Shown here one piece after another: positions 44,153 to 57,848 of a stretch of 64,000 nt of DNA. Under the pieces are notes generated by a model. The model saw nothing but the letters and a program-made list of their open reading frames with translations, was not told where the DNA came from and ran no database searches. Both the position numbers and the translations under genes were made by a program. Position 1 is the first letter of the stretch, and every line of letters begins with the position of its first letter. The stretch spans positions 7,892 to 71,891 of the forward strand of contig CALHAX010000008.1 of the NCBI GenBank assembly GCA_937931785.1. The letters are read 5' to 3'. Source of the DNA: an uncultured Hyphomicrobiaceae bacterium (GTDB lineage Bacteria > Pseudomonadota > Alphaproteobacteria > Rhizobiales > CALHAX01).

Positions 44153-46159
44153 ATGACACGCGCACTTTGGACACCGACGCCTGACGCAGAACGTACCAGC
44201 AATCTTGCTCGTTTCATGGAGTATCTCGCAGCCGAAGCGCCTGACTTTACTGAACAATACGACGCAAAGAAATTGCCCGCTGAGAACTACGACGCGCTCC
44301 ACACCTTCTCTGTTGAACACTCTGCCACGTTTTGGGCAGCCATGTGGCGGTTCGGTGATGTCAGGGGTGATATTGGCGCAGAGCCCTGGCTTGAAAATCC
44401 CGTTGCGATGCCTGGCGCCAGGTATTTCCCGAACGCGAAACTCAACTTTGCAGAGAATCTTCTGCGTGGCCAAACGGACGATTCCGGTGATGGAACAGCC
44501 CTGATCTTCTGGGGTGAAGACAAGGTCAAATCGCGTGTATCCCACAACGATTTGGCGCGCGCCGCAGCCGGGTTTCAGGGCGTTCTGGACGACGTGGGTA
44601 TCGTCGCAGGTGATCGCGTTGCCGCCATCATGCCGAACATGCCCGAGACGATCGCTGCAATGTTGGGCGCATCCGCCAGTGGGGCAGTCTGGTCGTCGTG
44701 TTCGCCGGATTTCGGGGTCAAGGGCGTACTCGACCGTTTCAGCCAGATCGAACCACGCGTGCTCGTTGCCTGCGACGGTTACTATTACAATGGCAAGATC
44801 ATCGACATCCGGGACAAGCTTGTCGAGATTGTCGTCGCGTTACCAAGCGTCGAACGTGTCGTCATCGTGCCCTATGCCGGTGATCTTGAGAGCACCATCT
44901 CAGCCGTCGCTGTCGAGCGCACGGCTCTGGCCTGGAGCGAAGCGGTGGCGAGCACAGACGCCGCCCGACCACACTTCGAACCGCTCCCGTTCGCACACCC
45001 ACTGTACATTCTGTTTTCATCAGGCACGACCGGCGCGCCGAAATGCATTGTGCACTCGGCCGGCGGTACATTACTCCAGCATCTCAAGGAGCATTTGCTC
45101 CATTGTGATCTGAAGCCCGGCGAAAGGCTGTTCTATTTCACGACCTGCGGCTGGATGATGTGGAATTGGCTCGTAACGGGCCTTGCCGCACAATCGACGC
45201 TGCTTCTTTATGACGGATCACCTTTCGCGCCGGACGGCAACATCCTCTTCGACTTCGCCGACGCCACACAGATGTCGGTGTTCGGGACGTCAGCAAAATA
45301 TATAGACGCCCTCAAAAAGGCGGATCTCCAACCGCGCGAAACTCACGACCTTTCAAGCGTGCGACTGATGACCTCCACGGGCTCGCCACTTGCGCCCGAA
45401 AGCTTCGACTATGTTTATGAACGCGTGAAACCTGATGTGCACCTTGCTTCCGTTTCCGGCGGTACGGACATCGTGTCCTGCTTTGTGATCGGCAATCCGC
45501 TGAAGCCCGTCTGGCGCGGTGAAATTCAGGGTGCAGGCCTTGGGATGAATGTCGACGTTGCGGACAGCGATGGCAACCATATGCCTTCCGGCAAGGGCGA
45601 GCTTGTCTGCCGCACGCCGTTCCCCTGCATGCCGATCATGTTCTGGAACGATCCGGACGGGAAAAAATATCACGACGCTTATTTCGACCGGTTCGAGAAC
45701 ACGTGGTGCCACGGAGATTTCGCCGAGTGGACCGAGCATGGCGGGGTAATAATTCACGGTCGATCCGACGCAACGCTCAACCCCGGTGGTGTTCGGATAG
45801 GGACGGCTGAGATATACCGCCAGGTCGAACAGCTCGACGGCGTGATGGAATCCGTTGTGATCGGCCAGGACTGGGATCACGACGTACGCATCGTTCTGTT
45901 TGTCGTGCTGCGGGATGGTGTCGTGCTTGATGACGCACTCTGCGATGCGATCATTCGCCAGATCCGCACCGGTGCATCGCCGCGCCATGTCCCTGCAAAG
46001 ATCATCGAAGTTGCCGATATCCCACGCACCAAATCCGGTAAGATCACAGAGCTGGCCATCCGAGATGTTGTTCACGGTCGCCCGATCAAGAACACGGAAG
46101 CGCTGGCCAATCCGGATGCACTCGAACTCTACAAGGATCTCGACGCGCTCAAATCGTGA
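44153..46159 (+). CDS. Acetoacetate-CoA ligase
   Basis: LNFAENLL, WSSCSPDFG, FSSGTTG.PKCIVH, YFTTCGWMMWNWL, SGGTD, GRSDATLNPGGVRIGTAEIY. Confidence 0.95.
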   Translation: MTRALWTPTPDAERTSNLARFMEYLAAEAPDFTEQYDAKKLPAENYDALHTFSVEHSATFWAAMWRFGDVRGDIGAEPWLENPVAMPGARYFPNAKLNFAENLLRGQTDDSGDGTALIFWGEDKVKSRVSHNDLARAAAGFQGVLDDVGIVAGDRVAAIMPNMPETIAAMLGASASGAVWSSCSPDFGVKGVLDRFSQIEPRVLVACDGYYYNGKIIDIRDKLVEIVVALPSVERVVIVPYAGDLESTISAVAVERTALAWSEAVASTDAARPHFEPLPFAHPLYILFSSGTTGAPKCIVHSAGGTLLQHLKEHLLHCDLKPGERLFYFTTCGWMMWNWLVTGLAAQSTLLLYDGSPFAPDGNILFDFADATQMSVFGTSAKYIDALKKADLQPRETHDLSSVRLMTSTGSPLAPESFDYVYERVKPDVHLASVSGGTDIVSCFVIGNPLKPVWRGEIQGAGLGMNVDVADSDGNHMPSGKGELVCRTPFPCMPIMFWNDPDGKKYHDAYFDRFENTWCHGDFAEWTEHGGVIIHGRSDATLNPGGVRIGTAEIYRQVEQLDGVMESVVIGQDWDHDVRIVLFVVLRDGVVLDDALCDAIIRQIRTGASPRHVPAKIIEVADIPRTKSGKITELAIRDVVHGRPIKNTEALANPDALELYKDLDALKS

Positions 46160-46638
46160 GCGATCCGTCGGACAGCATTATGGTCAGCACGAAAATCAGA
46201 CAACCCAAATCCTTGCCCCAGATCGGCTGGCGTGAGTGGGTGACATTTCCTGCGTTCAACAATACTCGCGTCAAGGCCAAGATCGACACAGGCGCAAAAA
46301 CCTCCGCTATTCATGCGCGGAAAATTTCAGAAGAACGGGTTGGCGATATATTGTTTGTTATATTTGAACTTCAACCTCGGCAACGGATTAGCAAACCTGT
46401 CATAGCCTGTCGTGCTGAAGTGAGCGACCGCCGTGTCATCCGCAATTCTGGCGGTCACGAAGAGACGCGATATGTCATACGAACGCCGGCCGCTATTGGT
46501 CTCTATGAGATTGACATCGAGCTGACTTTGACCAGTCGTGACTCCATGGGCTTTCGCATGTTGCTCGGTCGTGATGCAGTCAAGAAGCGGTTTCTCGTCA
46601 ATCCGGCGCGTTCCTACCTGCACGGGCACGAAAACTGA
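46156..46638 (+). CDS. RimK-associated putative protease (RimB-like, retropepsin-type fold)
   Basis: IGWREWV, KAKIDTGAKTSAIHA, M.FRMLLGR. Confidence 0.9.
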   Translation: MSDPSDSIMVSTKIRQPKSLPQIGWREWVTFPAFNNTRVKAKIDTGAKTSAIHARKISEERVGDILFVIFELQPRQRISKPVIACRAEVSDRRVIRNSGGHEETRYVIRTPAAIGLYEIDIELTLTSRDSMGFRMLLGRDAVKKRFLVNPARSYLHGHEN

Positions 46639-46767
46639 TCGCCCGATCGATGCCAGCAATGCTCAAGATAGTGCCTGTCATCCGATCTCGCGATTCCGGC
46701 CAGTGCAGCCTAACGCTAGACCCTGTCTGCGAACACAGGCACACAAGTGCAACGGAGGACGCCATCC

Positions 46768-47673
46768 ATGAACATCGCAATGCTGTGCCGGAACAAAAGC
46801 CTTTATTCGCACCGCAGGCTTGAGGAAGCCGCAGTTGCACGTGGGCATACGTTCGACATGATCAATACGCTGGAAGTGGTAATTAATATCGCATCCCGCA
46901 AACCCACATTGTATCTTGGTGAATCCCAGCTCACGGGCTATGACGCTGTCATCCCGCGCATTGGGGCGTCGGTCACGTTCTACGGTCTTGCGGTGCTGCG
47001 CCAGTTCGAAATGATGGGCGTATTCCCGCTGAACGAGTCCGTTGCCATCGGGCGTTCGCGTGACAAGTTGCGGTCGATGCAACTCCTGTCACGCAAAGGA
47101 ATCGGTCTGCCCGACACGGCATTCGCACACGATCCGAAGCAGGCGGAAAAAGTCCTGCAACTCGTCGGCGGAGCACCGGCAATCATTAAACTCCTTGAGG
47201 GAACGCAGGGCATAGGCGTTGTGCTCGGTGAAACCGAACAGTCGGCCAAGTCCGTCATCGAGGCATTTCGCGGCGTGAAAGTGAATATCCTGGTTCAGCA
47301 GTTCATAAAGGAAGCCGGCGGCTCCGACCTGCGGTGCTTCGTGATTGGCGATAAGGTCATCGCATCCATGCAACGCAAGGGCGCGGAGGGCGAATTTCGC
47401 TCCAATCTGCACCGTGGTGGCACGGCGACCATGGTCAAGACCACGAAAGAGGAGCGCGACACGGCACGCGCTGCAGCAAAGGCGATGGGCTTGAATGTTT
47501 GCGGGGTCGATCTTCTGCGGTCCGACAACGGGCCAGTCGTTATGGAAGTGAACTCTTCCCCAGGTCTTGAGGGAATCGAAAAAGCGACCGGCAAAGACAT
47601 CGCCGGCATGATCATCGAGTTCATCGAAAAGAACGCGCGCGAGGGTCGTACGCGAACGAGGGGGCAGGGGTAG
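46768..47673 (+). CDS. rimK: RimK ATP-grasp alpha-L-glutamate ligase
   Basis: [57 protein letters not shown]. Confidence 0.95.
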
Positions 47674-47677
47674 CGTC

Positions 47678-48730
47678 ATGGAGGAAGGCAAGCCACAATC
47701 ACCACTGGTGATCGCAGGGCAAACCGTTGAATCAGGCAAGCAGAAACTGATCGACATCCCCGTCGCACACTTGTCGAACCACATTCCGGTCACGCTGCCT
47801 GTGCATGTCGTGCACGGAAAAGAGCCGGGTCCTACGGCGTTTGTCTGCGCCGCCCTGCATGGCGATGAACTGACGGGTGTCGAAGCGATCCGTCGCATTA
47901 TGCGAATGCCGGAGTTGAACGATCTGAAGGGCACACTGCTCTGTGTCCCAGTCGTGAATGGTTATGGTTTCATCGTCCATTCCCGTTACCTGCCGGACCG
48001 GCGTGACCTCAATCGACTGTTCCCGGGAACACCGCGTGGTTCGCTCGGTGCGCAACTCGCACATATTTTCATGAATGAAATTGTCGATCGGTCTGATTTC
48101 GGCATTGATTTGCACACCGCCGCCGTCCACCGGCACAATCTACCACAAATTCGCTCAACCTTCGTCACGGCGCGGTCTCGTGCGCTGGCAAAAGCGTTTG
48201 GCGCACCTGTACTGCTGTCGTCGCCGGAGCGACCAGGGTCACTGCGACAGGCCGCATCCGAGCGTGGCATAGATGTGCTGGTTTACGAAGGTGGCGAAGG
48301 TCTGCGTCTGGACGAACTTTCGATCCGCTCCGCCGTTCGCGGTGTCTTGCGCGTGCTGGCATCCAACGACATGATTGCACTGCCGGATGACGACGGGAGC
48401 GATGTTACGCCTGTCTTCGCCCGCTCAAGCAAATGGATACGAGCACCCGAAGGTGGTGTGGTGCGCACGTTCAAGACATCGGGAGACAGCGTCGTGGCTG
48501 GTGAGGTCATGGCGATGATCGATAGTCCCTACGGTGACAGTGAAATGGAAATTCCTGCCGAGTTTGACGGTATCATTATCGGTCGAACCAACATGCCCGT
48601 TGTCAACCTCGGTGATGCCCTCTTTCACGTCGCCCGAGTACGCACGCTTGAGGATGCCGAGATCGCAGTGGAAGACCACGCGCGCGAACTCGAAAGCGAC
48701 CCGGTCTTCGATGAAGACGAAATCATATGA
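47678..48730 (+). CDS. Succinylglutamate desuccinylase/aspartoacylase-family M14 peptidase
   Basis: HGDELTG, SRYLPDRRDLNR.FPG, IDLHT, YEGGE. Confidence 0.92.
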   Translation: MEEGKPQSPLVIAGQTVESGKQKLIDIPVAHLSNHIPVTLPVHVVHGKEPGPTAFVCAALHGDELTGVEAIRRIMRMPELNDLKGTLLCVPVVNGYGFIVHSRYLPDRRDLNRLFPGTPRGSLGAQLAHIFMNEIVDRSDFGIDLHTAAVHRHNLPQIRSTFVTARSRALAKAFGAPVLLSSPERPGSLRQAASERGIDVLVYEGGEGLRLDELSIRSAVRGVLRVLASNDMIALPDDDGSDVTPVFARSSKWIRAPEGGVVRTFKTSGDSVVAGEVMAMIDSPYGDSEMEIPAEFDGIIIGRTNMPVVNLGDALFHVARVRTLEDAEIAVEDHARELESDPVFDEDEII

Positions 48731-48792
48731 CCGGATCGCCGCGGAGGGCGGCTTGTTCGCTCCTACTTTGTGCGCGTATCGTTCGAGAGCGG

Positions 48793-51700
48793 TCACTGTA
48801 CGCGCCAGCCACGTGCATCTCCTCCCGGTGCGGCGAATGTGATGCCGTCATCACCCCGCGTCACGATAGAACAGATACGCCGACCATCGGCCAGGTAGGA
48901 GAGGCGGAAGCAGATCTGATCGTCGGTCACGCTCCATCGCCCGTTATCGATCCCCGTGGAGCCAAACGTTTCATCCAGCATGACCTCGGCTTGCAACGCT
49001 CCATTGGCGTTGAGGCGAAGCGTGAATCGCTGGCCGCCAAAATCCCGCCCGCCGCGAATGGTCTTGCCGGATAACGCGGTGCGGAGATCTTCGATCGGCA
49101 CTTCTGGGACACTCGCTGCATCAGATTTTGTCCCTGCATCAGGTTCCAAAGATGGCGTAGTCGTCTCGGCGGGAACAACGGTTTCTGACGCTCCAGTGCT
49201 CTCCGTTCCTGCTCCAATCTTGACCTTCGGAGGGACAGGTTCCGTTATTTTCTTCGCTGTCGTGGCGCTGTCAGGTGTTGGCGATGTCAAACTTTCGGAT
49301 GTCGGTTGCGTTGCACTTTCTGTTTCCGCACCTGCAATTCTTTTAACCGTCTTCGGGGCATCCGGCTCAACCGTTCCGGTTGCGTCCGTTTTGGCGGCCG
49401 TGTCTGATGTCACAGATGCACCGGCTTCATCCTTGTCAGCCTGACCAAATCGCGATGTTGCATCGATGCTTTTGCGTTTCGGCTGCATCGCATCGTCAAG
49501 CGCATGCATCATGCTGTCGATTTTCATCTTGTCAGGCTCGGCCCCAACCAACCAGGCAGCCGAGAGCGCAAGGGCGACCCCGATCAGGATGCCCGCCGCC
49601 CACGCCAAGGGACTCGCCGAACCTGCTTGTCCAATGGTCTCCGAAGTCGCGACAGCAGGTATTTCAGCTTCGCTTGCATGCGCGTCGTCCGCATCGGGCT
49701 CCGCTGACAAGGCATCCCAGTTTCCGCGCCTCAACTCAGGCAACAGCGTCGCAATGTTCTTCTCTTCCAGGATGGCGTCTGCAATCCCTTTCGCCGTTCC
49801 GGGCGGCCCAGCGACGAAGGCGCCCACAATCCGTCCGTTCTCGATCACAAGCTTGCGGCGCAACGTGTCAGGTTCGTTCGGATCGACGATTTCCTCCTGC
49901 CCGAGCTTTTTCAGATGCGGTTCGCCGTAAGCCACCACATCGATGTTATCCATCTTGAGCTTCATGACGGTGTGCGGCACGGAACTGCCTTCACGACGCT
50001 TGAGAATATCGTCCGTTGCGAGTTGGGCGTGCTGCGCCCCGAGCGTCCAGAGGCCGGATGGTCCGCTGCCGAATTCCGCAGCATCACCGATGGCATAGAT
50101 ATGCGGATCGCTGGTCTTCATCGCATTGTCGACAACAATCCCACGTCGTGTTTCGAGTCCGGAGGCGACGGCAAGTTCCGTCTCGCCGCTGACACCGATG
50201 CAGAACAGGCATATTTGCGCATCGATCACGCGCCCATCTTTCAGGACAGCACGTTCCATGCGTTCGCCCCCCTCAATGCCTGCAATTTCCGAGTTCAGAA
50301 CGATATTCATCCCAAGATCGCGAAGATGGTTGGCGAGAACGAAGCTCGATTTTTCATCCAGATTGAGGTCCATCAGCCGATCGGCACGTTGTACCAGGCT
50401 GACGTCCAGCCCCAGTTGTCGCAGCGCGTCCGCAGCTTCAATGCCCAGCACACCGCCACCTACGACAACCGCGTGACGACAGCGATTGCGTTGCGCAAAC
50501 GCGCGGATCTCCAGCGCATCATGGGCCTCACGCAGAACGAATGAACCGGGCATGTTCGCCCCCGGAATCGGCAATACGATGGGTTTGCCACCGGTCGCAA
50601 GCAGCAACTTGTCGTAACTCAGTGTCTCGCCGGTTCCGAGTGCGATATATTTGTTTTCCCGGTCGATGTCGGTGACGAACGTGTTGAGCCAGACGTTGAT
50701 CTTGTTCTTTTTTGCCCAGTCGTTCGGCAGCAGATCGAGTCCATCCAGCGCCGTGCGCCCGTAGATCGCCCGGCCGATTGCCATGCGGTTATAGAAATGA
50801 TGGTTCTCACGACTGACGACATCGATTTCGAGTGACGGGCTGGCCTGCCGCAATCGATCAGCCGCCGTCACACCTGCCACTCCGTTGCCGACAATGACAA
50901 CGCGATTCACACCCGCCATTTCAGCGAGATCTTCCGCAGGTGTTGCTGGTGTTACGGTGGCTGCAGCCGCGAGATCGGCTTCCAGATTGATCGTCACCGG
51001 TCCTTTTCGCGCTTTGCACACACAGGCCATGCGCGCCTTGCCTTCAAGGCCGAGGCGGCGCAGCGTTTCCAGTTCGGTCTTGGACGGTGGTGACAGGTTT
51101 TCCGCTCCGTCCTCAATGAACACTGGGTCAGCGCCGCACATTCCGTTGCGGCAACCGAAGTCGATCTGCACACCGGCGTCTTCCATCAGCTCGAGAACGG
51201 TCTTGCCGGGGACAAGCGAAATAGTCTTGCCTTTCGAGCGCTCAATGAGCACGGCCCGACCGCTGTTCGCAGCCTGTTCTGCGCCGACATCGGCCATGCC
51301 ACCGTCACGCATCGCAGCAACCTGAGCCTCATAGGCTTGCTCCAGTCGAAGTCCGGCGTAGAGGTTGCGTGCGGCCACTACCACAACCACAGCTTGCAGC
51401 AGATAGGCGAGAATGTCTGGCAGGCGCATGTCGAACACATCCCGCAGGCCCCCAACAATCACGGGGGCGGCAAACCAGTAGTAGAGAAAGAGCGCTGTAA
51501 CGCCGTAGATCGCGGCGACTTTGTAGATGCTTTTTTTCAGGATCGACGTCAGGATGAAAAAACTCCCAGCCGATGCGATCAACCAGAGCGCGGTCTCCTG
51601 GAAATACGCCATGTAGCCGATCACAGACGGCGAACGACCAAGCCAGAATGACAGGATCAGCCCTGGGAGCACGCCGATAAACATCTGCCGATGGCCAGCG

Positions 51701-52338
51701 TACCACGTGTCCTTGTCGGACAGGTCCGCAAAGAACGCAGATCGTGGAGAAAAATCATAGCAGTTCTTCTGGCAGCCGACACATCCGGTTTCGCAATAAC
51801 CGTTCTTCACCAACATCGCCGGGGCGTGTCCGTAGACTTTTTGTAATGGTCCGAGTGGGCAGAACGTTCCGCACCACCCGCTGCGTCCCTTGAAAATCAA
51901 TCCACCGACAAACGCGGCACCAAGTGCTGCGGCCGCCAGGAACAAGAGTGAGAGCGGCGACTCGTACAAGGTCACATGCTTCAGCGCGACGAAGATCACG
52001 AACGCAACCATGGCAAAAAGATATGAGGATTCTTTAAGCCACATAGGTAACGTGCGTTCGGCCGAAAATCCCATACGTACCGGCAACTGGTTGAAGAACG
52101 CCATCGGACAAACCTGTCGCCAGATGCCGGGCACCAGCGCGAAAATCAGTGGCAATGAGGGAATGAAGATTCGCCAGAACAGCGTAATGCCAAGCTCTGG
52201 ATCAAAGATGAGCGTGGCGAGAACGGCAAACGTAACGGCCAGAGTCACAATGCGTGCGATCACCCAGACCCACGATGGGACCCTTGTTGGCATATCGGTA
52301 TAGGGGCGGAACACACCGGTTGCTACAGGTTCGCTCAT
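48793..52338 (-). CDS. Multidomain redox protein: membrane Fe-S-binding domain + [2Fe-2S] ferredoxin + FAD/NAD(P)H oxidoreductase + TM + C-terminal extracytoplasmic domain
   Basis: WRQVCP, WCGTFCPLG, CETGCVGCQKNC; CRNGMCGADP...RMAC; GNGVAG, ATG, GGGVLGIEAA, IYAIGD; TM AWAAGILIGVALAL; GRWSV..DQICF...IC. Confidence 0.85.
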   Translation of the reverse strand: MSEPVATGVFRPYTDMPTRVPSWVWVIARIVTLAVTFAVLATLIFDPELGITLFWRIFIPSLPLIFALVPGIWRQVCPMAFFNQLPVRMGFSAERTLPMWLKESSYLFAMVAFVIFVALKHVTLYESPLSLLFLAAAALGAAFVGGLIFKGRSGWCGTFCPLGPLQKVYGHAPAMLVKNGYCETGCVGCQKNCYDFSPRSAFFADLSDKDTWYAGHRQMFIGVLPGLILSFWLGRSPSVIGYMAYFQETALWLIASAGSFFILTSILKKSIYKVAAIYGVTALFLYYWFAAPVIVGGLRDVFDMRLPDILAYLLQAVVVVVAARNLYAGLRLEQAYEAQVAAMRDGGMADVGAEQAANSGRAVLIERSKGKTISLVPGKTVLELMEDAGVQIDFGCRNGMCGADPVFIEDGAENLSPPSKTELETLRRLGLEGKARMACVCKARKGPVTINLEADLAAAATVTPATPAEDLAEMAGVNRVVIVGNGVAGVTAADRLRQASPSLEIDVVSRENHHFYNRMAIGRAIYGRTALDGLDLLPNDWAKKNKINVWLNTFVTDIDRENKYIALGTGETLSYDKLLLATGGKPIVLPIPGANMPGSFVLREAHDALEIRAFAQRNRCRHAVVVGGGVLGIEAADALRQLGLDVSLVQRADRLMDLNLDEKSSFVLANHLRDLGMNIVLNSEIAGIEGGERMERAVLKDGRVIDAQICLFCIGVSGETELAVASGLETRRGIVVDNAMKTSDPHIYAIGDAAEFGSGPSGLWTLGAQHAQLATDDILKRREGSSVPHTVMKLKMDNIDVVAYGEPHLKKLGQEEIVDPNEPDTLRRKLVIENGRIVGAFVAGPPGTAKGIADAILEEKNIATLLPELRRGNWDALSAEPDADDAHASEAEIPAVATSETIGQAGSASPLAWAAGILIGVALALSAAWLVGAEPDKMKIDSMMHALDDAMQPKRKSIDATSRFGQADKDEAGASVTSDTAAKTDATGTVEPDAPKTVKRIAGAETESATQPTSESLTSPTPDSATTAKKITEPVPPKVKIGAGTESTGASETVVPAETTTPSLEPDAGTKSDAASVPEVPIEDLRTALSGKTIRGGRDFGGQRFTLRLNANGALQAEVMLDETFGSTGIDNGRWSVTDDQICFRLSYLADGRRICSIVTRGDDGITFAAPGGDARGWRVQ

Positions 52339-52500
52339 GGGGCGGTCTCTGGCTCGTATATATTTTGCAGGAACTGTTAGCACGTTTTGAAACAGACAGT
52401 GCAGCACGCAGAGACAAGTCCACATCCTGGCACCATGATCAGGGACAACCCGTTTCGGTTCGTGACAAGAGTCGCGGCCCCCTCACGAAAACGCAGCTCT

Positions 52501-53658
52501 CTATTGTCGCAACGCCCTGCGACGGCGGTCACGAGCGATGCTACGCACCGTTCGGCCAGGTCTTGTGACCGCACTGGAGGACGCAGACCCCTTGCGGACG
52601 TAGCTTTCGCCACCCTGGCGAATGCCAGCCGTGCGCACGCCGCGCCGTGCCAGTTTTTTGCGTTGATTCGCGACCCAGCGTTTGCAGCTCGGGAGCCGCA
52701 GGTTACATTTGACAATAATTTTGGGTGCCACTGGTTTCCGCTTCGCGATCGATTTGCGGGATTGGGAAGATGCCGTCCTGCTTTTCGCCTTCGTTTTGAT
52801 TTTGGAACTGGTCGGAACCTGCCACGTCGGCACGCACTTTTCTGGTGGATTGGCCGTGTCACCTGGCGTGACATAACGCGTGCCGCAGACACGAACGCCC
52901 GGGAGTGTCTGCGTTTCCATGAATGATGCATAAATCGGTTTCAACATCGACCAGAAATCGAAGGATTTGTGCGTTCTCTTTGCCGTAAGTTTTTCGTCTG
53001 TCAGGTGGAACGGAAAGATGTGCGTTGAGACGCGCTTCTGCCCTCCTTCGAAAGACGCATCGAGAATACGATAAATTTCCTCGATACCACGGTCGGTCAT
53101 GGCGTAACAGCCGACTGATCCGCAGCCGCCATGAATTTGTAGATATGAACCCGTTCGACCATTCTGCGTATCGTAAGCATTCGGGAAATCAAGATTGACG
53201 GCGCGATGGTTTTTCGTGCGCGAGAGCAACTGCTTGCGAGTGACGGAATAAACCCCTTCCGGTGATTGTTCGTCACCTTCCTGCAGTTTTGGTCCAAGCT
53301 TTCCCGACCATTTGCAAATCTTGAAATCCTTGAACTTCTCGTATTTAGCTCCCTTCTTGAGCCACATCTCGACAACGTTCTCTTCCTTGTAGATACGCAT
53401 ATGTGCAGCGCTGCCCCAGGAAAACCCGCCATTCGCCATGTCCTTGCGAAGAATGCCCTCGATCCAACCAACCTTTGATGCGGGGGGCTTGGTCTGTATC
53501 GTCTGCAGTATGCTGGGTGTTGGTGTGGTTGTCGCAGCCGACTGGGCCAGCAACACAGTCGGCGTCGTCAATAACACGATGGCCGCAGCGGAGCCCGTGC
53601 GGAGCCAGTTGGAGGCGTTAGTGCGTCGCAGATCAAAAAGCATCGCTGTCAAATTCAT
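52501..53658 (-). CDS. L,D-transpeptidase-family protein (YafK/DpaA-like) with basic C-terminal tail
   Basis: RIYKEE, ICKWSGKLGPK..EGD.QSPEG.Y, FPNAYD, IHGGCGSVGCYAM. Confidence 0.9.
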   Translation of the reverse strand: MNLTAMLFDLRRTNASNWLRTGSAAAIVLLTTPTVLLAQSAATTTPTPSILQTIQTKPPASKVGWIEGILRKDMANGGFSWGSAAHMRIYKEENVVEMWLKKGAKYEKFKDFKICKWSGKLGPKLQEGDEQSPEGVYSVTRKQLLSRTKNHRAVNLDFPNAYDTQNGRTGSYLQIHGGCGSVGCYAMTDRGIEEIYRILDASFEGGQKRVSTHIFPFHLTDEKLTAKRTHKSFDFWSMLKPIYASFMETQTLPGVRVCGTRYVTPGDTANPPEKCVPTWQVPTSSKIKTKAKSRTASSQSRKSIAKRKPVAPKIIVKCNLRLPSCKRWVANQRKKLARRGVRTAGIRQGGESYVRKGSASSSAVTRPGRTVRSIARDRRRRALRQ

Positions 53659-55774: not shown

Positions 55775-55921
55775 ATGCCAAGCTTGATACGTTTTTTGGT
55801 CGTGATCGGCATCCTGGCGGGGATTGTCTGCGGAGGACTCTATGTCCTGGCGGTGTATTTCGAGCCGGCGCAGACGGAAACAGTGGAAACCGTAGGCGGT
55901 GGTGTCCGGATCCAGAATTGA
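55775..55921 (+). CDS. 48-aa single-TM protein missing from the ORF track (MPSLIRFLVVIGILAGIVCGGLYVLAVYFEP...)
   Basis: Manually translated. Its TGA is 1 nt before the next ATG. Resembles the small membrane protein commonly seen upstream of xerD in Hyphomicrobiales. Confidence 0.75.
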   Translation: MPSLIRFLVVIGILAGIVCGGLYVLAVYFEPAQTETVETVGGGVRIQN

Positions 55922-55922
55922 T

Positions 55923-57848
55923 ATGAGGCGGCTCGCACAGCGCTTTGTGGCGTTAACGCTCGGTCTGGTGGGTGTTCTGATATCTGCGAGTGCGCAGGCG
56001 GCTGAGCCGTCGCTAAAACTCAACCCCAATCGTCCGGTCATTGATGTGACACGCGAGATCTCTCGCAAGGCAGCACCCCGACGGACTGTTGTCCCAGCAG
56101 TACGTCGAAAGCGCACTCAAACCCGAACAGTGCCGGAGATCCGCCCGACTGCGCAGCGTGCCAACCCTACAGCGCGGCCAGTGCCCTCTCTGACTGTAGA
56201 GGATGTGCTGAGGCAGGAGCTACCACCGCTTGAGGATGCCAGCGACGGTGATGTCGCGCCCTCACGACCAGACGCAACGAAACGCCAAAGTCGCCGCCCG
56301 CTGCGTAAAAGAAGTCGGTCAGTCAAAGTATTGCCCGATGACGCATGGCGTGGCGTCTCTATGAAGCGATTCGAAGACATTTCGCGTGAATATGCCCGCA
56401 GACCCAGATCACGTGCCGTTCGAGATCTCTGGGTGCGCATGTTTGCCAGTTCAGCCCGACCGCCCCAGGGCGCCTACAACGCGGTCTCGTTTGAGGCATT
56501 GCGTATGCAGGCGCTTTATCGACTGGGTGCCGTGCAGCAGATTGTCGATCACGCGGACACGGTGCCTGAGGGAGCGGGCTATGCCATCCTGAACATTCTG
56601 GCCGCCAAATCCCGGATCGCACTCGGCGATGAGGAAGCCGCCTGCGCCTCGGCAAAGTCCTTGATCAGCGAAAAGGGGAAGGTCGCTGAAAGCCTGCAAC
56701 GCGAGTTTGTGGAAATTTCAGTCTATTGCGCCTTGCGGTCTGACGATCGATCGCGGGCCTCGCTGATCATGGAATTATCCCGCGACCGGGGACTGGATGC
56801 CCCAGCAACGTTCGGCGTTGTGGACGCGCTCACACTCGGTCGCGTGCCCGCACTGCCAAAGGGGCGTCGTCTGGCGCTCATTCCTGGCAAATTACTGGTT
56901 CTTGGCGGTTACAAGCCAAAGCGCCGGTTCTTTGAAATTGCGACTCCGGCTCTTCTCCTGGCGATTGCTTACAATTCTGAGGTTCCCACCGCCGTCCGGA
57001 TCGAGGCGGCAGAACGTGCGGCAGAACATGGCGTGCTACAGCCATCAGGCTTGCGCACTGTGTACCTGGAGAGTGGTCGCACGTCGGGCAAAGGCGGATC
57101 GCGCGCGGCCTCAATGCGTAAAATCGCTGAACTCGCCCGCAACCGTAACGCAAGCGGACGTGTTTTGAGCGAAGCACGCCGCCTGCTTGATGCATCGCGT
57201 CATGGCCGCCTGTATCCGGTTGTTGCTGCGATGCTCGGTCCGGACATCGGCAACTTGCGGCAAACCCGCGACGCGCAGACCTATGCGGAAACTGCAGTCG
57301 AAATTGCTGCGGCCTCCGGTCAGTACGATGCCGCGATCGGGTGGGCGATCTTTGGCTCCGCCTACACGAGTGCGGGCACGGGTGGCGAAGGGCGGAGTCT
57401 GATGCATTGGCAGATGCCAGTAAATATTGCGGATGCGCGCCGCGGCACACCGCGCGGCGCGGGCTTGGTTCCGACAGAACGGCTGGCGTTGCGCGGGCGG
57501 TTCGCCTCGGATGTCCTTCACCGTCTTGTTACGGTGCTCGACAGTCTCGGCTACACCGTCCCGATCCCGCTCTGGAACGCAGCCAGTCAATCTCCCCAAC
57601 CGGCCAAAGGGTATCTTCCGAAAACGGGCGTTCTGTCCGACCTGGCTCGTGCGTCCAAGGATCGACAGATCGGACATACACTCCTGCTTGCCATCGCGGC
57701 GCTCGGTCCGGATGGTGCCAGCAAAGCACACCTGATCGCATTGGGTGACAGCCTGCGTGCGCTGCGCCGCGCCGGTCTGGAAGATGCCGCACGCGAGATT
57801 GCGTTCGAGATGGTATTTCCGATCTGGCCACGCCAGTCACGCCGATGA
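55923..57848 (+). CDS. Secreted alpha-helical hypothetical protein
   Basis: Signal peptide ending AQA, Arg/Pro-rich linker, C-terminal L...GL...AR.IA.E. Confidence 0.8.
   Translation: MRRLAQRFVALTLGLVGVLISASAQAAEPSLKLNPNRPVIDVTREISRKAAPRRTVVPAVRRKRTQTRTVPEIRPTAQRANPTARPVPSLTVEDVLRQELPPLEDASDGDVAPSRPDATKRQSRRPLRKRSRSVKVLPDDAWRGVSMKRFEDISREYARRPRSRAVRDLWVRMFASSARPPQGAYNAVSFEALRMQALYRLGAVQQIVDHADTVPEGAGYAILNILAAKSRIALGDEEAACASAKSLISEKGKVAESLQREFVEISVYCALRSDDRSRASLIMELSRDRGLDAPATFGVVDALTLGRVPALPKGRRLALIPGKLLVLGGYKPKRRFFEIATPALLLAIAYNSEVPTAVRIEAAERAAEHGVLQPSGLRTVYLESGRTSGKGGSRAASMRKIAELARNRNASGRVLSEARRLLDASRHGRLYPVVAAMLGPDIGNLRQTRDAQTYAETAVEIAAASGQYDAAIGWAIFGSAYTSAGTGGEGRSLMHWQMPVNIADARRGTPRGAGLVPTERLALRGRFASDVLHRLVTVLDSLGYTVPIPLWNAASQSPQPAKGYLPKTGVLSDLARASKDRQIGHTLLLAIAALGPDGASKAHLIALGDSLRALRRAGLEDAAREIAFEMVFPIWPRQSRR

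Follow-up and report, generated by a model that had tools for sequence, protein, structure and literature searches.

The stretch of DNA described here (the window) comprises 64 000 nucleotides of contig CALHAX010000008.1 from an uncultured Hyphomicrobiaceae bacterium. On its minus strand it carries a gene whose product joins a membrane domain of eight transmembrane (TM) helices, a [2Fe-2S] domain, a flavin adenine dinucleotide (FAD) and nicotinamide adenine dinucleotide (phosphate) [NAD(P)H] domain, one more TM helix, a 152-residue linker and a C-terminal domain of 96 residues, in this order. We read it, with a probability of roughly 0.55, as a signal-linked membrane NAD(P)H oxidoreductase. 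The open reading frame (ORF) at 48793..52425 has 1210 codons and is open throughout. Its Met30, at 52338, is the position at which homologues begin, and the protein database holds an identical product of 1181 residues (P0002); 48793-52338 was therefore taken as the gene. Residue numbers are counted from Met30 and coordinates are window positions. An earlier note on this DNA had described one uninterrupted ORF of ~1180 residues containing about eight TM helices with WRQVCP, WCGTFCP and CETGCVGCQKNC, a ferredoxin domain, a complete FAD/NAD(P)H domain of the disulfide-reductase fold and a tail made up of a further TM helix, a T/E/P-rich linker and a Cys-pair domain of ~95 residues. Each part and each quoted motif was recovered, at positions that agree with those of the earlier note to within a few codons (Table 1).

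Table 1. Features of the oxidoreductase gene, in window positions.
Feature	Position	Strand	Basis or remark
Whole gene	48793..52338	-	1181 codons plus stop; Met30 start shared with homologues
N-terminal membrane domain, eight TM helices (residues 1-345)	51304..52338	-	AlphaFold2 pLDDT 87.6; positive-inside counts; hhalign to NapH
WRQVCP (residues 73-78)	52105..52122	-	Degenerate first CX3CP with only its second Cys (C77) kept; directly after TM2, cytoplasmic side
WCGTFCP (residues 155-161)	51856..51876	-	Intact CX3CP directly after TM4; C156 and C160 invariant
CETGCVGCQKNC (residues 182-193)	51760..51795	-	Four invariant Cys, C-x3/4-C-x2-C-x3-C, in the 62-residue cytoplasmic TM4-TM5 loop
[2Fe-2S] ferredoxin domain (residues ~368-445)	51004..51237	-	Pfam Fer2 (PF00111), E 5.8e-7, 29.8 bits against a cut-off of 21
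FAD/NAD(P)H domain, ferredoxin/rubredoxin-reductase type (residues 479-765)	50044..50904	-	Pyr_redox_2, E 3.6e-60
Flavoprotein C-terminal subdomain, Rubredoxin_C-like (residues 793-858)	49765..49962	-	Pfam PF18267, E 6.9e-4, below cut-off
Ninth hydrophobic helix (residues 913-933)	49540..49602	-	Kyte-Doolittle maximum 2.13 over 19 residues
152-residue low-complexity linker	49084..49539	-	66% T/S/E/P/A/D; opens with a conserved, helix-like EP(D/N)xM..MM..A stretch
C-terminal 96-residue eight-stranded beta-barrel, ToxS/TP0435/lipocalin-like	48796..49083	-	Invariant G, G-x-W and C-x12-C pair

The similarity search listed 119 non-self matches to the window protein. Conservation in the membrane domain was counted over 79 rows (78 chosen from these matches plus the window protein), and the same alignment was used for an AlphaFold2 model of residues 1-376, which contained eight long helices (22-45, 47-68, 99-124, 128-148, 211-233, 242-266, 271-302 and 309-345). 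C156, C160, C182, C186, C189 and C193 were invariant, C77 was kept in 99% of the rows and M79, close to it, in 97%. No further Cys of the membrane domain was conserved over these rows, and H216 (66%) was the only His conserved at 60% or more. The four Cys of residues 182-193 form a candidate [4Fe-4S] site, the cluster type being suggested by the motif. The N-terminus was assigned to the cytoplasm because NAD(P)H is bound there and eight helices lie ahead of the binding domain. Mean numbers of K plus R per row agreed with this topology, with 2.2, 3.0, 5.9 and 0.6 for the cytoplasm-assigned N-terminus and loops 2-3, 4-5 and 6-7, and 0.2, 0.1, 0.2 and 0.1 for the periplasm-assigned loops 1-2, 3-4, 5-6 and 7-8. 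All seven conserved Cys of the core are thus placed on the cytoplasmic side, which makes an internal chain from NAD(P)H to the membrane plausible. At 1, 3, 8 and 6 residues, the periplasmic loops are short, and none of their positions is a conserved Cys; no redox site was visible by conservation on the periplasmic side of the core.

In hhalign, the membrane domain was aligned with the NapH of a relative at a probability of 93% (E 3e-7, 123 columns); the alignment paired WRQVCP with CSWVCP of NapH, TM3-TM4 with their counterparts, WCGTFCP with WCGHLCP and the four-Cys motif with the first CxxCxxCxxxCP. The best NCBIfam E for NapH was 1.2e-4. The NapH models TIGR02163 and PRK09477 gave 21.3 bits against a cut-off of 234 and 18.4 bits against 213; the domain is therefore not a NapH. 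Pfam Fer4_5 gave 21.4 bits against a cut-off of 22 in hmmscan and 23.8 bits in a six-frame search. From these alignments, the domain appears to be a distant NapH relative, homologous at the superfamily level. With the integral membrane Fe-S proteins of the NapH/MauN type (TIGR02163, PRK09477, Fer4_5 PF12801) it shares a homologous core in which a CP-type motif follows one TM helix and is itself followed by two TM helices, an intact CX3CP motif and a four-Cys motif at the cytoplasmic face. It differs from them in having eight TM helices where NapH is described with four, in lacking the first Cys of its first CX3CP (the second, C156-x3-C160-P, is intact) and in possessing one four-Cys motif, differently spaced and with no terminal CP, in place of two C-terminal CxxCxxCxxxCP motifs. 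The window protein also has the fused [2Fe-2S] domain and NAD(P)H/FAD reductase, and no nap genes lie nearby. Neither fold search returned a solved structural relative of the membrane domain. A search for shorter proteins with a stand-alone membrane domain gave 69 matches, mostly fragments from short contigs, and one protein of 349 residues at 25% identity; since almost only fragments were found, the domain is normally fused to the rest. Unnamed proteins of 330-380 residues from Gemmatimonadota and Planctomycetota were returned by the ESM Atlas at 0.90-0.91 and are taken as leads only.

The earlier note had placed the membrane domain among NapH/MauN/FixG-type Fe-S proteins, of which the NapH relationship stands and the CcoG/FixG similarity does not: against the CcoG of a relative (G007), the hhalign probability was 3%, and NCBIfam gave no CcoG match. 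This bears on the idea that a metal ion or another small molecule, and not quinone, is reduced at the cytoplasmic face of the membrane in the manner of CcoG, a reported cupric reductase. Such a reaction would suit a Cys-rich site at the membrane interface with a conserved Met next to the C77 motif, and CcoG (TIGR02745) was not found in the genome of the window. It is nevertheless unlikely given the 3% alignment, the lack of a metal transporter or chaperone among the neighbours scanned and the distribution of the two genes: the congeners lack both CcoG and the gene and a further relative (G004) has both, therefore no complementary pattern exists. The notion that the protein substitutes for CcoG was rejected on this phyletic pattern and on the hhalign result. 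Neither NapH (TIGR02163) nor CcoG turned up in the window genome or its three congeners (G000-G003); a search of 41 genomes, these four included, recovered CcoG in 28.

The ferredoxin domain lies above the Fer2 cut-off, and its Cys 396, 401, 439 and 441 are invariant or nearly so in the family. The usual CGxC reads CGAD, with Asp404 in place of the third Cys, and a conserved CxC follows further on. Its best solved relative is Ferredoxin-4 (9i2a, E 3.3e-8). The flavin domain also matches Pyr_redox (E 1.7e-19) and has the Rossmann motifs GNGVAG and GGGVLG. Its closest solved relatives are TodA (3ef6, 1e-37), rubredoxin reductase (3fg2) and putidaredoxin reductase (1.4e-30). Disulfide reductases of the glutathione-reductase (GR) fold carry their Cys in the N-terminal stretch, and this stretch of the flavin domain has no Cys. 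The best NCBIfam match was to the N-terminal half of NirB (TIGR02374; residues 480-863 on model positions 1-389 of 794), at 269 bits against a cut-off of 578; the siroheme (nitrite/sulfite-reductase) half of the model was unmatched in the window protein. Matches of the flavin domain to TodA, putidaredoxin reductase, rubredoxin reductase and the NirB N-terminal half range from E 1e-37 to 1e-28, and the pairing of a flavin reductase with a [2Fe-2S] carrier is that of class I/II oxygenase systems. Unlike the ferredoxin and rubredoxin reductases, the window protein combines reductase, ferredoxin and a membrane Fe-S domain in one chain, and unlike oxygenase systems and NirB it has no oxygenase, nitrite-reductase or siroheme domain. 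The logic is similar to that seen in Na+-translocating NADH:quinone oxidoreductase, in which electrons pass from NADH through FAD and [2Fe-2S] of NqrF to Cys-ligated iron held by the membrane helices of NqrD/E. The flavin domain of NqrF is of the ferredoxin-NADP reductase type and not of the GR type as in the window protein, and the flavin mononucleotide (FMN) subunits have no counterpart here; a relationship in sequence was neither seen nor looked for.

Judged by sequence comparison, the first three parts constitute a widespread, uncharacterised proteobacterial family of ~880 residues. The window protein is 41-61% identical to more than 100 proteins, collinearly over query residues 1 to ~880, and 117 of the 119 listed matches are ~810-940 residues long, cover 67-74% of the query and end after the flavin domain. 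Their hosts are Alpha-, Beta- and Gammaproteobacteria and a few Eremiobacterota, and databases carry them only under generic labels ('nitrite reductase large subunit', 'FAD-dependent oxidoreductase', '2Fe-2S binding protein'). The family signatures PGxWRQxCPM and KGRSGWCGTFCPL...NGYC..CxGCQKxCYDF are all present in the window protein. The complete architecture, which the earlier note did not recognise from any characterised protein, was likewise found for none in Pfam, NCBIfam or the literature retrieved, taken as main texts; related clusters of NapH-like proteins may be included in Supplementary file 1 of PMC8238504.

The tail is confined to a few members. Of the listed matches, just two (P0003 and P0004) covered it, and cluster look-ups added P0217 (1252 residues, from a metagenome-assembled genome of Hyphomicrobiales) and P0218 (1242 residues, 57% identity over the full length). 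These fall into four clusters at 90% identity from different sources: the window protein, P0218, P0003/P0217 (1246/1252 residues) and P0004 (1232 residues). The membrane domain was used for a maximum-likelihood tree; three tail-bearing rows were included and formed one clade (100/100) nested within the family, which is consistent with one fusion event. A scan of 80 metagenome loci gave none that matched past about residue 901. That the tail might be a lineage-specific fusion had been raised beforehand, and this is essentially what was found. An assembly artefact, or an error of gene calling that joined two genes, had also been considered and can be practically discounted. The window is indeed part of a metagenome-derived assembly. 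Two runs of a marine metagenome study yielded contigs with its sequence, and no RNA data set was listed among those that contain it. In the second run (X2), no contig bridges 49620-49658; in run X1, a contig of 17.4 kb, which may be the source, covers 48600-50714 without differences, the junction of flavin domain and tail included. Together with the frame, which is open throughout, and the full-length architecture in four separate clusters, this speaks against an artefact.

The ninth helix was kept in all five tail-bearing sequences. For the C-terminal domain no Pfam family was found at E<=1, and the remaining sequence matches were weak (NCBIfam peroxynitrite isomerase, E 0.12; fatty-acid-binding proteins among PDB profiles, E 0.14). 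The best E for the barrel in Foldseek was 3.2e-3, and its sequence identity to structures of the ToxS/VtrC/TP0435 type was 9-19%. It shares the eight-stranded barrel fold with ToxS and VtrC and with lipocalin-like lipoproteins of the TP0435 type, and is unlike them in being tethered covalently through a TM helix and a long linker. Among 1.84 billion representatives, just 25 matches were found at E<=1e-3. The best of these was a protein of the same genome (412/430 residues, 42% identity) composed of a class III cyclase, a TM helix, a T/E/P linker and the same domain. This cyclase paralogue, a class III adenylate/guanylate cyclase, lies at L071:1492-2784 (-) on contig C2; the genome has no copy of the domain besides these two. 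The domain partners were scanned in 19 rows (18 of the 25 matches and the cyclase paralogue, which is P0191; P0004 and six long weak matches were left out). Guanylate_cyc was present in 6 of the 19 rows and BTAD/Trans_reg_C, as in ToxR-like regulators, in 2; two further matches show cyclase fragments by eye and one (P0212) a signal peptide by eye, and many matches contain the domain twice in tandem. The partners are without exception signal transducers anchored in the membrane.

The barrel is most likely extracytoplasmic, as the earlier note had assumed. In 15 of 15 aligned copies the Cys pair was invariant, the only other invariants being the G and G-x-W. Since this disulfide-type pair is kept in cyclases and transcription regulators, it is taken as structural and not catalytic, and a role as periplasmic sensor or tether is more likely for the tail than one as the end of an electron wire. 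The earlier note had proposed a self-contained wire that possibly serves the tethered domain. The electron chain itself fits the fused and conserved order of the parts, and this half of the proposal stands; service to the tail does not, given that the Cys of the core are all cytoplasmic and that the barrel is shared with cyclases and regulators. A complete transmembrane wire that feeds electrons from NAD(P)H to its own Cys-pair domain in the periplasm, where it might act as a reductase of thiol-disulfide or another kind, is hence regarded as very unlikely, even though the tail is covalently attached and probably periplasmic, the sections of PMC8238504 on NapH-like modules propose that these move electrons across the membrane to extracytosolic domains, and those of PMC5928378 assign no function to the CX3CP motif. 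The Cys pair is C-x12-C and not CxxC, and is invariant on proteins that have no redox input; with only G, G-x-W and two Cys invariant, the barrel has therefore no motif for a cofactor or metal, and its fold resembles that of ToxS and lipocalins. The periplasmic loops of the core, 1-8 residues in length, have no conserved redox residue, a flexible linker of 152 residues separates the membrane from the barrel and 117 of the 119 listed homologues work without a tail.

The genes around family members were compared in 61 genome loci and the window; after removal of four loci that start inside the gene, 58 with upstream DNA remained. ORFs were called in the 61 loci and clustered, and two recurrent neighbours were searched for in six frames with hidden Markov models. 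Directly upstream on the same strand, a gene for a protein of ~150 residues of the Pfam family cNMP_binding (cyclic nucleoside monophosphate binding; E 1e-20 to 1e-22) was present in 54 of the 58 loci. It was missing from four loci, namely the window and L001, which both bear the tail, and L023 and L056; it was thus found in 54 of the 56 tail-less genome loci. Of the 80 metagenome loci, which share at least one contig with the genome set, 72 had at least 500 nucleotides of upstream sequence and 69 of these carried the gene. Taken together, the partner accompanies 123 of 128 evaluable tail-less loci and 0 of 2 tail-bearing loci with flanks. Elsewhere in the window genome, its best match was a Crp-like frame of 254 residues at 34% identity; no close orthologue was found. 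Three tail-less metagenome members (L099, L100 and L101) were without the cNMP_binding gene; the upstream ORF of L101 ends with an HCHxxxH motif, seen by eye, which we take to be multicopper-oxidase-like. Most partners keep the FGE...PRSA phosphate-binding cassette.

Further upstream, a gene with FHA and T6SS_FHA_C domains (TagH-like) was found in 27 of 62 loci of the genome set and in 8 of 40 metagenome loci; one of these neighbours matched TagH in NCBIfam at 282 bits against a cut-off of 120. The other neighbours of 20 loci, 49 in number, included two cyclases, one Ser/Thr kinase and two patatin-like genes, with the cyclase or kinase genes close to the family member in L021, L035 and L027. 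In two gammaproteobacterial loci, L027 (6082-7437) and L017, the cNMP-binding gene is directly preceded by one for a Ser/Thr kinase, which fits the FHA (phospho-threonine reader) genes of other lineages. No type VI secretion system (T6SS) gene, cytochrome, reductase or transporter recurred among the 49 neighbours, and no redox partner appeared. A T6SS link of the TagH-like genes was rejected, as none of these 49 neighbours was a T6SS gene.

The same survey bears on export of electrons by the NapH-like core to an unlinked acceptor in the periplasm or outer envelope, as proposed for proteins of the NosR/PceC type, with the tail docking the acceptor or an envelope partner. NosR and PceC (RdhC) resemble the window protein in that, in the sections of PMC5928378 and PMC8238504 describing them, a CX3CP membrane module is joined to an extracytoplasmic domain in one polypeptide. 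Theirs is an N-terminal, covalently flavinylated FMN-binding domain and they have no built-in NAD(P)H reductase, whereas the outer domain of the window protein is a C-terminal ToxS/lipocalin-like barrel without a flavinylation motif. Transmembrane conduits built on NapH-like modules have a precedent in those sections of PMC8238504, a long Pro/Thr-rich linker could span the periplasm and structural neighbours such as NlpE and ToxS work through contacts with envelope proteins. We consider this route doubtful, since the protein has no fused FMN-binding domain, cytochrome or reductase of the periplasm and none is encoded among the 49 neighbours, the periplasmic side of the core has no conserved residues and the family is linked instead to cytoplasmic signalling proteins.

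A signal-linked membrane NAD(P)H oxidoreductase would accommodate these observations in the following way. As anatomy, the chain from NAD(P)H through FAD and [2Fe-2S] to a Cys-rich, NapH-like domain is well supported, and from it we infer the chemistry. The cytoplasmic FAD domain, of the ferredoxin-reductase type, would oxidise NAD(P)H and pass single electrons to the fused [2Fe-2S] domain. This in turn would reduce an Fe-S site formed by Cys 182-193 together with the CP/CX3CP Cys C77, C156 and C160, all predicted to lie at the cytoplasmic face of the eight-helix membrane domain. By analogy with NapH, the most likely acceptor would be membrane quinone; NapH is proposed as a quinol-coupled module in the sections of PMC5928378 and PMC8238504 that treat it. 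Delivery to quinone is loosely favoured because of that proposal, because the cofactor residues lie at the inner face and because no periplasmic acceptor is encoded. The ninth helix would carry the chain out of the cytoplasm, and this helix, the 152-residue linker and the barrel would stand outside the wire as a periplasmic sensor or tether, as on class III cyclases and ToxR-like regulators. In a small subclade of Hyphomicrobiales, the tail would have taken the place of the separate cNMP-binding partner, so that an external input may reach the enzyme directly and bypass the cyclase, the cyclic nucleotide and the partner; any gating by the tail is likewise suggested by this exchange. A precedent for a flavoenzyme linked to cyclic nucleotides is cyclic-nucleotide-binding (CNB) family 13, 'Bact_Pyrredox', which is described in the part of Kannan et al. 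(2007; PMC2246266) devoted to it as CNB domains fused to a pyridine-nucleotide oxidoreductase. There, the tandem CNB domains are fused to a soluble enzyme, while in the ~880-residue family the CNB protein is encoded by a separate upstream gene that is missing in the subclade of the window.

Several points weigh against this reading. What accepts the electrons, which cofactors are bound and which way the electrons move are all inferred, and the quinone proposal draws solely on the distant analogy with NapH, no candidate quinone site having been found. The proposed replacement of the partner by the tail is based on no more than two flanked tail-bearing loci, the window and L001. The K/R residues near the tail helix follow it and none precede it, which taken alone opposes an outward orientation. 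In the Accumulibacter-type and some other cNMP-binding partners (L022, L058, L025 and L037), the FGE/RSA residues are lost, so that control by cyclic nucleotides is not general; these partners may bind something else or nothing. Complex prediction for the cNMP-binding protein and the Fer2 plus FAD part of a tail-less member gave a score of 0.48, against 0.00 for the best control, which is weak support for an interaction. Of 157 solved complexes, 116 reached the mark applied in this prediction, as did 2 of 215 mismatches; with scores of 0.60 or below, only 18 of the 157 did so, and both of the mismatches. At least 90% of the contacts agreed between runs and the pLDDT of the partner was at least 74. 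No fusion of the cNMP-binding protein to the oxidoreductase was present among 33 matches to longer proteins, the best of which were eukaryotic cGMP-dependent kinases, a result of little weight.

A more far-reaching form of the same reading is put forward tentatively. The window protein might be a 'receptor oxidoreductase', in which a periplasmic barrel that is tethered by one TM helix and senses a ligand or the state of the envelope directly switches a self-contained membrane Fe-S enzyme that transfers electrons from NAD(P)H to quinone or another acceptor. The ~880-residue family would then be a signal-gated redox valve under the control of a CNB subunit and, in many lineages, of FHA/phospho-threonine signalling. 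In most members, the same type of sensor would act through a cyclase, the cyclic nucleotide and the CNB partner; here it would be coupled to the enzyme without these intermediates.

NapH-type membrane Fe-S modules are widespread and their mechanism is obscure, no role being assigned to the CX3CP motif within them in the sections of PMC5928378 cited above. In the ~880-residue family, such a module comes with an NAD(P)H-FAD-[2Fe-2S] input within a single chain, and since no partner subunits are needed, the family is a convenient place to probe the function of the module. The near-obligate cNMP-binding neighbour, exchanged here for a ToxS-like barrel that otherwise occurs on cyclases, suggests direct signal control of the flow of electrons from NAD(P)H into the membrane. 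If this holds, marine and soil Proteobacteria would have a mode of respiratory or redox regulation that has been little explored.

In its genome, the oxidoreductase gene is present as a single copy and is the only match to Fer4_5. It is absent from all three congeners (81-90% complete), and among 40 relatives the full-length form was found only in G004, the genome of L001. Two congeners have, between the AstE-like and YkuD-like genes that flank it in the window, a same-strand gene of 387-453 residues (L089, G003:C44, 1349-2710; L090, G001:C36, 1267-2430) with the look of an outer-membrane beta-barrel by eye. As it is missing in congeners and another gene occupies its place in two of them, the oxidoreductase gene is regarded as accessory at this locus. 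Upstream on the same strand lie a gene for a YkuD-like exported protein, aroB and aroK, and a convergent AstE-like/RimK/Zn-protease trio lies downstream. A redox-partner gene was not found beside the gene, in agreement with the earlier observation that no oxygenase or reductase gene adjoins it. A scan of 48500-52700 for promoters and terminators gave nothing informative. A 649-residue ORF at 55899-57848 (+), divergent from aroK, had no Pfam match at E<=1e-3. Of the conserved-looking downstream trio at 46156-48730 (+), one gene is for a putative ATP-dependent Zn protease (PF05618), one for an ATP-grasp ligase of the RimK type and one for an AstE/aspartoacylase-like protein, the last with 74-75% identity in the three congeners. 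The YkuD-like gene at 52501-53658 (-) encodes an exported protein of 385 residues that matches YkuD (L,D-transpeptidase) weakly and whose C-terminal third is very basic and rich in K/R; the three congeners have it at 55-60% identity, and in each of them there is a second paralogue at 42-43%.

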